64,000 nucleotides of DNA, taken from NCBI GenBank assembly GCA_945957555.1, contig CAMFLX010000001.1, positions 114,229-178,228 on the forward strand, written 5' to 3'. The notes under the pieces are model-generated. The model saw only the letters and a list, made by a program, of their open reading frames with translations. It was not told the DNA's origin and ran no database searches. Shown piece by piece: positions 55,583-57,656 of the stretch. Each line of letters starts with the position of its first letter. Position 1 is the stretch's first letter. The stretch comes from an uncultured Cytophagales bacterium (GTDB lineage Bacteria; Bacteroidota; Bacteroidia; Cytophagales; UBA9547). Position numbers and translations under genes: made by a program.

Positions 55583-56236
55583 ATGGGACGTCAAAAACTT
55601 GCAAGATTTGAACACAATGCCAATGTTCACAATGTGATAGAGCCAGGCAAAGAGTTATTTGAGACAGTAAGGAAGAACTGGGATAAGCTTTTCTTTAAAA
55701 ATGGAAATCCAATAGTCTTGGAGTTAGCATGTGGAAGAGGAGAATATACGGTAGGCTTAGCAAAGGAATATCCTAATAAGAATTTTGTGGGATTTGATAC
55801 CAAAGGAGCAAGAATTTGGAAAGGAAGTACCATCGCTATTCAAAATGGCTTTACCAATGTAGCGTTTTATAGACATACCATAGATTTTCTAGATCAATAT
55901 TTTGAAAAAGGTGAAGTTTCGGAAATCTGGGTTGTTTTTCCAGATCCTCGGCCCTTGGAAAGGGATGAAAAGCGTCGTTTGGTTCACCAGCGCTATATTG
56001 ATATGTACAAACATGTGATGGGGGGCGGAGGCATCTTTAACTTCAAGACGGATAACAGAGAACTATTTGATTATGGTCTAGAGGTAGTAAAAAGCAATAA
56101 TCCTAAAAGTTTAATTTATACCCATGATTTATACAACTCGGACTATTTGGGATTCCATCATGGGATTCAAACAAAGTATGAATTGAAATTCCTTGCTGAG
56201 GGCTTCAAGATCAATTATTTGAGATGTGAGTTTTAG
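55583..56236 (+). CDS. trmB: tRNA (guanine-N7)-methyltransferase
   Basis: LELACGRGEY, KGARIW, FPDP, FKTD, IQTKYE. Confidence 0.93.
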   Translation: MGRQKLARFEHNANVHNVIEPGKELFETVRKNWDKLFFKNGNPIVLELACGRGEYTVGLAKEYPNKNFVGFDTKGARIWKGSTIAIQNGFTNVAFYRHTIDFLDQYFEKGEVSEIWVVFPDPRPLERDEKRRLVHQRYIDMYKHVMGGGGIFNFKTDNRELFDYGLEVVKSNNPKSLIYTHDLYNSDYLGFHHGIQTKYELKFLAEGFKINYLRCEF

Positions 56237-56399
56237 GTTTTATCGCCTAATAATGTTATCCTAAGGGTCTCAGCCCTGTCTGAAACATCGAAGATTCTCA
56301 ATAGCGTTGAGGGTATACCGGTTTTAGTGCTTCTGTGGTGCTGAAGCCTGAGCGGGAAATCTGCACAGCTCCCAGTGTATCAATGTGGACGAAGTATAT
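56233..56399 (-). pseudogene. degenerate second copy of the GIY-YIG nuclease gene
   Basis: manual translation gives (ATA)YFVHI, a frameshifting deletion, then YTGSCADFPLRLQHH-RSTKTGIPSTLLRIFDVSDRAETLRI, colinear with the intact copy. Confidence 0.8.
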
Positions 56400-56449
56400 A
56401 TTGCTGTAAAAACAAAAAAGACCTGGTCTTTCGATTCCGGATTTTTATG

Positions 56450-56523
56450 TCGGGGTGGCAGGATTCGAACCTGCGACCTTGGCGCTCCAAGCGCCACGCG
56501 ATACTGGGCTAGGTTGCACCAAT
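56450..56523 (-). other. tRNA-Pro-like mimic / pseudo-tRNA overlapping the GIY-YIG stop codon
   Basis: 74 nt, aligns without gaps to tRNA-Pro; T-arm and 3' acceptor strand kept, 5' acceptor and D-stem disrupted, anticodon stem TGGCG/CGCCA. Confidence 0.8.
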
Positions 56524-56751
56524 ATCATCGAGGAACCTTCTCGCCCTCCGTTTCTTGATCCTCAGCTCAAGTTTTAGTGCCCCTGTCCTGTCGTCGACCT
56601 CGAAGAGCCTGACGACTGTCCATGGGACACCCGACTTTGTGCTTCTGTTGTGCCCTGCGTTGTGGTGCTGGATCCTGAGCGAGACATCTGCATAGCTGCC
56701 AGTGTAATACTTTTTGGTATCCTCGCTGTATATGATATAGACAAAGTACAT
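56509..56751 (-). CDS. small stand-alone GIY-YIG nuclease (about 80 aa)
   Basis: YFVYIIYS...YYTG, conserved R (LRIQHHN), HN.G...STK...PW, ALKLE.RIK; ATG at 56751. Confidence 0.88.
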   Translation of the reverse strand: MYFVYIIYSEDTKKYYTGSYADVSLRIQHHNAGHNRSTKSGVPWTVVRLFEVDDRTGALKLELRIKKRRARRFLDDIGAT

Positions 56752-56760
56752 GGTGTAAAA

Positions 56761-56790
56761 CAAAAAAGACCAACATTTCTGTTGGTCTTT
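56761..56790 (-). terminator. intrinsic terminator after tRNA-Pro
   Basis: - strand AAAGACCAACA-GAAA-TGTTGGTCTTTTTTG. Confidence 0.75.
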
Positions 56791-56808
56791 CGATTCCGGA
56801 TTTTTATG

Positions 56809-56882
56809 TCGGGGTGGCAGGATTCGAACCTACGACCTCCACATCCCAAATGTGGCGCGATACCGGGCTACGCTACACCCCG
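56809..56882 (-). tRNA. tRNA-Pro (TGG)
   Basis: CGGGGTG/CACCCCG acceptor, CCACA-TTTGGGA-TGTGG anticodon arm, GGTTCGAATCC. Confidence 0.96.
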
Positions 56883-56943
56883 TTTTGAAGTTTTTTATTC
56901 GGTTACTTCTCCGATCTCCCTCAGTGTGCCTGCCGCAAACTTG

Positions 56944-57032
<89 letters not shown>

Positions 57033-57092: not shown

Positions 57093-57656
57093 CTATTTTT
57101 TTTTCACCCAATCATTATACTGTTCAACTACTAGCTTTTTTGAATGAAAGCTATTGTCATATTTATAACTTAAAATATCGTTTCTAAGTTGCTCATAATC
57201 TTGTACAAAGGGTACGATGTAATCTATTTTTCCAAAGGGTAAAAACTCTTTTCTATCCATTTTTTCCACTAAAAACGCTTTTTTGGGAGGTAGTATAAAA
57301 TCAGTTTTAATTTTTGTTTCATACATTGTAATTGGTCCATTTACAACAATTTCAGCAAACTGATATATCGAATCTGAATTTTCTGCAATAGGTAATTTCA
57401 CGGTTCTGAATATTTTGTGATTTGCTTCATAACCCAAAACTGTTTTTGGTAAAAAAATGCTATCCTTGGTCGTGTTATTTATATTCTTGACAACAATATA
57501 TGCATGAGAATATTTGTGATGGTTGTATACCAGTCCTTTAATGGTATCTGACTGTAATGTTATAACGTAGCCAATATGCCCTGAAGTATCTCTTTGAGCA
57601 TATATAGAATACGAAATGGTAAATGATAATATGATAAGTTTAGTAAAACTATTCAT
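57093..57656 (-). CDS. secreted hypothetical protein
   Basis: signal peptide; GYVITLQSDTIKG N-terminal pattern common in Bacteroidota secreted proteins. Confidence 0.7.
   Translation of the reverse strand: MNSFTKLIILSFTISYSIYAQRDTSGHIGYVITLQSDTIKGLVYNHHKYSHAYIVVKNINNTTKDSIFLPKTVLGYEANHKIFRTVKLPIAENSDSIYQFAEIVVNGPITMYETKIKTDFILPPKKAFLVEKMDRKEFLPFGKIDYIVPFVQDYEQLRNDILSYKYDNSFHSKKLVVEQYNDWVKKK

Follow-up and report, generated by a model that had tools for sequence, protein, structure and literature searches.

Tandem tRNA-Pro and GIY-YIG nuclease units in an uncultured Cytophagales bacterium: a probable member of a family of very small selfish cassettes at bacterial tRNA genes

We analysed a stretch of 64,000 nucleotides from an uncultured Cytophagales bacterium (GenBank assembly GCA_945957555.1, contig CAMFLX010000001.1, positions 114,229 to 178,228; hereafter the window), in which tRNA-Pro and GIY-YIG nuclease units are arranged in tandem on the minus strand. 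We read this locus, with moderate confidence, as belonging to a family of selfish cassettes of very small size that live on bacterial tRNA genes. As judged from the sequences, the cassette would comprise a single-domain GIY-YIG gene of the Slx1/UPF0213 type, encoding about 80 amino acids, followed by a GC-rich hairpin that lies inside a partial copy of the neighbouring tRNA or takes the place of one of its stem-loops. An intact tRNA is kept beside the cassette and therefore the host loses nothing. The existence of such a family is supported by arrays in other genomes and by the repeated occurrence of this design across Bacteroidota, next to tRNA genes of many different isotypes.

Read along the minus strand, tRNA-Ser(GCU) and an intact tRNA-Pro(UGG) come first, followed by a terminator-bearing trailer and the 80-aa GIY-YIG gene, also intact; a pseudo-tRNA-Pro, the repeated trailer and a decayed GIY-YIG copy complete the locus (Table 1). 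This layout had been put forward in an initial annotation made from the sequence alone, and every detail of it that was checked with ARAGORN, Rfam, Pfam and repeat alignment proved right, including a first unit of about 359 bp and a second unit shortened by deletions. A direct repeat of 97 nt (56424-56520 and 56783-56879) recurs with a period of 359 bp and is 84% identical. Its first 49 nt are identical and reach from within the T arm, across the 3' acceptor strand, 36 nt into the trailer. Over their whole alignment the two units share 77% mean column identity, with four deletions in unit 2. One of 11 nt takes out most of the terminator hairpin of the unit 2 trailer (fold -4.4 kcal/mol, z -1.0), two of 25 and 15 nt are internal to the second GIY-YIG copy, and the 3' end of that copy is lost. 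The unit alignment and frame translation also reveal that its start codon has changed from ATG to ATA, and the copy runs up against the trmB stop codon at 56236. Unit 1 is intact in this genome, and unit 2 a dead, older copy.

The intact tRNA-Pro is the single tRNA-Pro(UGG) among the 47 tRNA genes called by ARAGORN in the 6.25-Mb assembly, and in alignment it is identical to the tRNA-Pro of a genome of the same genus (G001) and to that of G011. The pseudo-tRNA-Pro receives no ARAGORN call and its Rfam match covers only model positions 8-63. Its 5' acceptor strand and D stem are degraded and the anticodon arm is replaced by a GC-rich palindrome; from the variable loop through the T arm to the 3' acceptor strand, the copy matches the intact gene exactly. 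The final codons and the stop of the GIY-YIG gene sit in tRNA-derived sequence that aligns with the 5' part of tRNA-Pro. The earlier description of this piece as a tRNA mimic holds in that it is tRNA-Pro-like, and it is better described as a pseudo-tRNA with its anticodon arm swapped for a palindrome.

The unit 1 trailer folds at -11.3 kcal/mol (z -3.7), and none of 200 shuffles folded as well. The GIY-YIG start codon lies 12 nt past the terminator stem-loop, as the terminator scan draws it, and this position suggests weak expression by read-through from the tRNA promoter. From our reading of the sequence, tRNA-Ser(GCU) is the first gene of the tRNA transcription unit, with a TAnnTTTG-like motif immediately upstream which we take to be the -7 promoter element of Bacteroidota. 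Separately, a sigma-70-type promoter match at 56759-56732 was set aside as it spans the GIY-YIG start codon; to our knowledge, promoters of this type are not expected in this phylum.

Table 1. Features of the cassette locus, in window coordinates
Feature	Coordinates	Strand	Basis
tRNA-Ser(GCU)	56943..57032	-	ARAGORN, anticodon gct; Rfam tRNA 54.2 bits, gathering score 29
Intact tRNA-Pro(UGG)	56808..56882	-	ARAGORN, anticodon tgg; Rfam 66 bits, gathering score 29
Unit 1 trailer, 56 nt, with rho-independent-type terminator	56752..56807	-	Terminator scan, stem-loop 56764-56791 with 12-bp stem
Intact single-domain GIY-YIG gene, 80 aa	56509..56751	-	ATG open reading frame 56751-56512, stop TAG 56509-56511
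Pseudo-tRNA-Pro	56449..56520	-	Alignments; Rfam 27.2 bits, under gathering score 29
GC-rich palindrome TGGCGC-TTGGA-GCGCCA in anticodon-arm position	56480..56496	-	Alignment
Unit 2 trailer	56404..56448	-	Alignment; matches unit 1 except for 11-nt deletion
Decayed second GIY-YIG copy	56248..56403	-	tblastn, 56% identity over residues 15-64, one in-frame TGA

Homologs of the nuclease (E <=0.001) were identified in 17 of 60 related genomes and not in the same-genus genome G001, which is 99% complete. We compiled 83 loci, of which 25 come from the genomes of relatives, 30 from metagenome contigs and 28 from contigs of named genomes. The set of relatives leaves out L023, L026 and L027, which overlap L011, L017 and L013, as well as the two loci of the genome that carries the window; the named genome contigs were scanned with the window protein as a single query. 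All 28 named genome contigs belong to Bacteroidota (Chitinophagaceae, Saprospiraceae, Crocinitomicaceae, Flavobacteriales, Bacteroidales, Mucilaginibacter and others). A same-strand tRNA called by ARAGORN lies within 150 bp of the GIY-YIG copy at 57 of the 83 loci (18 of 25 in relatives, 20 of 30 in metagenomes and 19 of 28 in named genomes), against a background of at most 0.36% of the positions of the window's own genome lying that near to a tRNA. The tRNAs concerned have at least 17 different anticodons. Several of the 26 loci with no tRNA nearby stop at a contig edge or hold just hairpin-marked pieces of a tRNA.

ARAGORN labels some pseudo-tRNAs as tRNAs for Lys, Ala or Ile, and a stricter count therefore excluded tRNA calls containing the hairpin. 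An intact tRNA then remained at 55 of the 83 loci, and 48 of these 55 contain an extra partial copy of that same tRNA. In 38 of the 48, a perfect GC-rich palindrome whose stem measures 6 bp or more lies within 45 nt, compared with 4 of 47 when the intact tRNAs of the window's own genome were taken as a control. Tandem arrays of two to four copies, with periods of 355-436 bp, occur at 10 of the 83 loci. Two orientations can be distinguished: in the first, to which the window belongs, the intact tRNA is followed by the gene and a hairpin-marked 3' copy, and in the second a hairpin-marked 5' copy is followed by the gene and the intact tRNA. The commonest palindrome among the relatives has the form TCCCG...CGGGA and a double-hairpin form is also found. 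The expectations of the initial annotation, that homologs would be flanked by tRNA 3' parts or mimics and would occur in arrays of variable copy number, are thus borne out. It had also named three findings that would speak against its proposal, namely homologs lacking any tRNA association, one fixed single arrangement in all relatives, and a duplication produced by assembly; none of the three was encountered.

In a quick maximum-likelihood tree of 71 proteins over 87 kept columns (three identical rows merged, copies shorter than 65 aa left out), the window protein groups with those of L003 and L077 with an SH-aLRT value of 91. The L003 gene lies behind tRNA-Pro(tgg) in a Ser-Pro-Arg tRNA cluster, and its palindrome TCCCGCTTGAGCGGGA is joined to tRNA position 46. 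L077, from a Chitinophagaceae genome, is a three-copy array behind tRNA-Ser(gct) and beside tRNA-Pro(tgg), in the same kind of tRNA cluster. At L075, where the protein is 49% identical and the tRNA is tRNA-Ala, gene and hairpin are flanked on either side by a copy of the 3' third of the tRNA together with its trailer and terminator. From its sequence, this arrangement looks like a long target duplication, and its layout is that of the cassette in the window. The placement of a terminator directly before the start codon also recurs, in L069, L075 and L077.

The palindrome of the pseudo-tRNA deserves separate treatment. All 8 natural tRNA-Pro(UGG) genes that were compared keep the anticodon loop TTTGGGA. 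The looser pattern TGGCGC..GCGCCA has two matches in the window's own genome, where the site in the window is the sole copy of this palindrome. A search for TGGCGNTTGGNNCGCCA in 400 other genomes of the phylum gave matches in 13 genomes as compared to 12 for the reversed control, and therefore the matches are overall at chance level. We had considered that the palindrome could be the anticodon arm of a foreign tRNA-Pro; this was rejected, since none of the 14 loci examined is such an arm and only one of them adjoins a tRNA. In G282, a distant genome of another family, a palindrome one base off that of the window is located 50 bp upstream of tRNA-Pro(tgg) and tRNA-Arg(tct), inside an AT-drifted, decayed tRNA-Pro-like piece which still aligns with the tRNA frame. 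From this single case, the palindrome would seem to be part of a cassette lineage associated with tRNA-Pro. Taken with the hairpins of the other loci, the sequence evidence indicates that the palindrome is a recurrent mark of the cassette family and not a product of decay.

Two further observations concern hairpins of the TCCCGA...TCGGGA type. At L041 (2598-3480), where ARAGORN makes no tRNA call, six repeat copies carry such a hairpin, four of them upstream of the GIY-YIG gene at 105-bp spacing and two downstream. In the window's own genome, dozens of these palindromes with the flanks caagttg and caggctc are present on many small contigs (for example C89, C154, C176, C180, C207, C292 and C385), where they look like a dispersed hairpin repeat family that is not near tRNAs. 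The assembly measures 6.25 Mb in 413 contigs, with 2.85 Mb in 334 contigs of at most 20 kb, and the genome of the same genus measures 3.7 Mb. The small contigs may come from a second organism or from repeats, though the reported contamination is 0.43%.

A hairpin next to a small nuclease gene brings to mind the Ssn family (SsnA, cd10448), described as single-domain GIY-YIG site-specific nucleases that cut single-stranded DNA beside their own NTS/SRM hairpin repeat (PMC11893778). The locus could accordingly be a domesticated Ssn-type module, cutting single-stranded DNA at its hairpin and modulating transformation or recombination like SsnA of Neisseria, with the tRNA position being only its ancestral landing site. 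We regard this as unlikely. A single-domain GIY-YIG protein with an adjacent GC-rich hairpin is what such a module would have, and the hairpin cores of relatives, TCCCGC...GCGGGA, resemble the NTS core TCCCGCG...CGCGGGA given in PMC11893778. However, the palindrome of the window is single in its genome and is not a dispersed repeat; the hairpin is of another sequence than SRM/NTS and stands on one side only. The Ssn SRM search pattern had no match in the window or in 219,136 bp of related loci, in a search where the NTS consensus was matched as a positive control. Two genomes that bear homologs, Flavobacterium aquaticum (L092) and Mucilaginibacter corticis (L093), are listed in Supplementary Data 4 of PMC11893778 with a weak cd10448 homolog by PSI-BLAST (YES), but the same entries give NO for an SsnA homolog by tblastn and for a CDD score >100, and show no SRM enrichment. 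The word tRNA does not occur in the main text of that report.

We next consider the nuclease itself. The 80-aa protein matches the Pfam GIY-YIG family PF01541 with 48 bits (cut-off 22.6, E 1.6e-12), residues 1-70 aligning to model positions 1-73 of 78, so that it is one domain with nothing beyond the catalytic part. Residues Y5, Y16, G18, R26, H30, W44 and E62 are all present, and they are invariant or nearly so across 21 aligned homologs; presumably the Tyr, Arg, His/Asn and Glu positions have the catalytic roles of the conserved GIY-YIG residues. Against sequences of solved structures in the PDB, the family profile finds the UPF0213 proteins 1zg2 (E 7e-17) and 1ywl (3.6e-12) and Slx1 chains (1e-7 to 4e-6), and finds I-TevI (0.016) and UvrC (0.025) more weakly. 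We therefore place the nuclease, on sequence similarity, as probably a relative or sister of Ssn, of the Slx1/UPF0213 type, and not as a demonstrated member of that family. NCBIfam gave only a sub-threshold match to a group I intron endonuclease (19 bits, cut-off 56), and neither PHROGs (E 0.001) nor PADLOC gave a family match. A tblastn search of plasmids with the GIY-YIG protein returned no match, and that of phages returned only weak matches to GIY-YIG genes of Rhizobium phages.

The base composition of the GIY-YIG gene is foreign. Its open reading frame has 50.4% GC and 65% GC at third codon positions (GC3), as compared to 37.2% and a GC3 of 35% in trmB and 38.9% in the genome as a whole, and its GC content is reached in just 1.6% of 240-nt windows drawn at random from the genome. 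The counts of the initial annotation, 36 G+C of 60 in the nuclease gene (56581-56640) against 19 of 60 in trmB (56101-56160), are exact.

This composition bears on the view that the nuclease is a host gene, in which a small Slx1/UPF0213-type enzyme co-transcribed with tRNAs would serve tRNA or RNA metabolism, or the repair of heavily transcribed tRNA loci, and the duplication would be the result of ordinary unequal recombination. The gene is always on the strand of the tRNA and directly behind or before it, the neighbouring trmB is itself a tRNA methyltransferase gene, and a 2006 survey of GIY-YIG domains reports the fusion of an Slx1-like domain with a TrmH-type tRNA methyltransferase in prokaryotes, with a suggested role in RNA metabolism (PMC1564403). 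A host function is nevertheless improbable in our judgement, for besides the foreign composition the gene is patchily distributed among relatives and absent from the same genus, the tRNA isotype varies between genomes, pseudogenes and truncated copies are frequent, and the hairpin-marked dead tRNA copies have no obvious use to a host.

Public sequencing reads allow the duplication to be assessed independently. Parts of the stretch are contained in 19 public runs, and we compared contigs from four runs of four studies (X1, X2, X8 and X11). These contigs reproduce every junction with at most 4 differences, and therefore the duplication is real. That it is an assembly artefact, which might be suspected since repeats can be mishandled in short-read assemblies and the depths point to one collapsed identical copy, is extremely improbable, as the independent contigs span each junction and the two units differ at about a quarter of the aligned columns as well as by four deletions. 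The contigs break exactly at the shared node of 49 nt. Expressed as k-mer depths of contigs, which are not copy numbers, unit 1 and its flanks have 16.7 against 8.0 and 9.0 in X1, 101.2 against 48.4 and 48.8 in X2, 12.8 against 6.5 and 4.2 in X8, and 4.7 against one flank of 2.7 in X11, while the node has 27.1 in X1 and 158.7 in X2. One intact unit should give the unit at 1x and the node at 2x, and two intact units should give 2x and 3x. With the unit at about twice the flank depth in all four runs and the node at about three times in X1 and X2, the assembly appears to have collapsed an identical second copy of unit 1, and intact unit 1 may thus be present twice. A joint in X11 that goes back by 359 was given no weight for a second intact unit; the 49-nt node exceeds the assumed contig word size of 31, so that this joint is uninformative and the path is possible under either model. 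RNA runs contain a fraction of 0.06-0.08 of the words of the stretch.

Direct repeats of the 3' part of a tRNA are a classic footprint of integration, and the repeats could in principle be the attL/attR scar of a larger island or prophage, driven by an integrase, attached at tRNA-Pro and since deleted. We consider this very unlikely. As had been noted initially, there is no integrase or transposase nearby; Pfam identified no integrase, transposase, recombinase or phage gene in the 11 open reading frames of at least 120 aa between 49217 and 64000. Moreover, the unit is just 359 bp in length, it has no match in PHROGs or PADLOC, and it recurs as a self-contained array in many genomes.

A number of observations weigh against the locus being a member of a selfish cassette family. 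No movement step has been observed for the cassette, and its mobility is something that we infer. There is no other copy of the GIY-YIG gene in its own genome; a Pfam-based search found there a different, unrelated small GIY-YIG gene (L074; G000 contig C211, about 1374-1779) at 53 nt behind tRNA-Asp(gtc), which is probably frameshifted, its family similarity being lost after about 43 residues. Since only this locus and one unrelated remnant are present, the cassette is not proliferating in its own genome. Close homologs are also rare: a word-based search found two related proteins, at 80% (P0001, from metagenomes) and 41% identity, and after P0001 the next best relative is at 49%. The palindrome of the window is unlike both the SRM pattern and the common TCCCG...CGGGA form of the relatives, for which reason its role as a recognition site is an analogy. 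The second intact unit is read from k-mer depths. The strains of X2 and X8 differ from the window at three positions of the GIY-YIG gene, all nonsynonymous (Y20C, G57E and R69G) and pointing toward the residues of P0001; X11 has two of the three, the third site being uncovered, and the adjoining part of trmB has two synonymous changes and one nonsynonymous change. The GIY-YIG gene may therefore be drifting rather than maintained. On the tree, the labels of the adjacent tRNAs change 21 times, as compared to 33-36 times in ten printed shuffles. That nuclease clades follow the tRNA isotype could mean vertical descent or target specificity, and as related hosts share labels the clustering alone is no proof of the latter.

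The comparison with relatives at the DNA level adds to these points. No pair of filled and empty sites was found among the close relatives, in a search of five family members. Such an empty site had been named initially as something to look for in close relatives. G001 lacks the gene in a locus that is rearranged: 130 kb separate trmB from the tRNAs, and behind tRNA-Ser(gct) stand two tRNA-Pro(tgg) genes of identical sequence, with 189 bp between them and a similar terminator for each (L036, 1515-1972). As the tRNA-Pro is duplicated and trmB is elsewhere, a clean comparison with an empty site is not available. The AT-rich spacer of 189 bp holds no GIY-YIG remnant and has no similarity to the cassette, which makes it a tandem of tRNA-Pro genes without the nuclease. 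Either a cassette site that has healed or a separate duplication event may account for the pair.

With these points taken into account, we still favour a selfish cassette living on the tRNA gene, and its mode of action can be outlined by analogy with SegB of phages and with Ssn. The nuclease would cut DNA either at its hairpin or close by, or else at stem-loops of the tRNA gene itself, one plausible substrate being single-stranded DNA laid open by heavy transcription of that gene. Homologous recombination between the direct repeats derived from the tRNA, which here have 49 nt identical, would then mend the break, and such repair could expand and contract the array as has been shown experimentally for phage SegB. 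After horizontal transfer, the conserved tRNA sequence could provide the homology for recombining into the tRNA gene of a new host. This logic probably differs from that of integrases, which use the 3' ends of tRNA genes as attachment sites. In the earlier proposal of a selfish, tRNA-anchored element, the tie to tRNA genes and the arrays are supported, the movement is presumptive, and the integrase-like use of tRNA 3' ends probably does not apply. In a bolder and rather doubtful version, which we offer only tentatively, these would be minimal parasites of about 0.3-0.4 kb, in which an 80-aa GIY-YIG nuclease specific for its hairpin invades tRNA genes through stem-loops exposed as single-stranded DNA. 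Entry would duplicate the 3' third of the tRNA, often with its trailer and terminator, the element's own hairpin would disarm the spare copy and tandem amplification would follow, a route distinct from classical homing, transposition and site-specific integration.

If the reading as a selfish cassette holds, colonisation of essential single-copy tRNA genes is routine in a major bacterial phylum, the coloniser, a nuclease of one domain plus a hairpin, ranks among the smallest autonomous selfish elements known, and the SegB-driven amplification of tRNA segments in phages is joined with the hairpin-guided cutting of single-stranded DNA by Ssn. It would also account for many genes annotated as 'GIY-YIG nuclease family protein' and for stray tRNA fragments, and would mean that short-read assemblies undercount such arrays. 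Pairs of nuclease and hairpin could yield new sequence-specific DNA tools.

The surroundings of the cassette are housekeeping genes. Pfam identifies an M43 peptidase, an OmpA/PD40 protein, MazG, a UDG-family protein and TrmB on one side, and a ComEA-like HHH_3 protein, citrate synthase, PurH and a GH3 glycosidase, together with a protein of 187 aa, on the other. The 187-aa protein (57093-57656, minus strand), which adjoins tRNA-Ser, has a hydrophobic N-terminus and no Pfam family. Opposite tRNA-Ser, at 56944-56997 of the plus strand, Rfam reports 'Plastid-psbl-rps4' with 58 bits, under its gathering score of 68, which is most likely an antisense-tRNA artefact of that model.

Several known systems resemble parts of this design. 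A possible parallel is offered by the homing endonuclease genes of bacterial tRNA genes, whether in group I introns or free-standing: these selfish nuclease genes sit in essential RNA genes and do not destroy them. In fungal mitochondria, GC-rich hairpins travel with some mobile open reading frames as double-hairpin elements. The cassette has no intron or ribozyme, and the tRNA is preserved by duplication and not by splicing. The best matches of the family profile among solved structures are UPF0213 (YhbQ-like) proteins and Slx1, the latter being a eukaryotic structure-specific nuclease that works with Slx4. For UPF0213 proteins, no known link to tRNA genes or hairpins was found in the literature searched.

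Of the published systems, SegB and Ssn come closest to the cassette. SegB of phages T4 and T6 is a free-standing GIY-YIG homing endonuclease in a tRNA cluster, and its site includes a tRNA T-loop motif (PMC2330249). According to a further report, SegB causes tRNA-segB segments to be amplified in tandem, for which both its nuclease activity and the recombination proteins UvsX and UvsY are needed, the amplified units can carry truncated copies of the nuclease, and 386 phage homologs of SegB are enriched near tRNAs of many isotypes (PMC13096335). A GIY-YIG gene in a tRNA cluster and tandem units of tRNA plus nuclease are thus common to both. The cassette protein differs in that it has 80 aa with the catalytic domain only, is chromosomal in Bacteroidota and has no PHROG match. 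SegB reportedly has an added DNA-binding part. Its homing needs phage co-infection, which has no obvious chromosomal counterpart for the cassette, and hairpin-marked pseudo-tRNAs, which the cassette has, are not described for SegB loci in the available portions of these sources.

With Ssn, the cassette has in common a very small single-domain GIY-YIG protein (80 aa here, about 100 aa in Ssn) and an adjacent GC-rich hairpin, and the Ssn authors call the NTS-ssnA-NTS layout insertion-sequence-like (PMC11893778). The Ssn repeats are dispersed SRM/NTS sequences, whereas the hairpin of the cassette is single-copy and the SRM pattern is absent; in the main text of PMC11893778 the words 'tandem' and 'Bacteroidota', like 'tRNA', do not occur, and it gives no tRNA link, pseudo-tRNA or array. 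The literature searched gave no account of chromosomal tRNA genes of bacteria at which small GIY-YIG genes are nested together with hairpin-marked copies of the tRNA. The suggestion that the system is undescribed can therefore be kept for its chromosomal, tRNA-nested design, while SegB and Ssn are precedents for its behaviour. It is best read as a widespread, apparently unpublished variant of the selfish GIY-YIG elements nested at tRNA genes.

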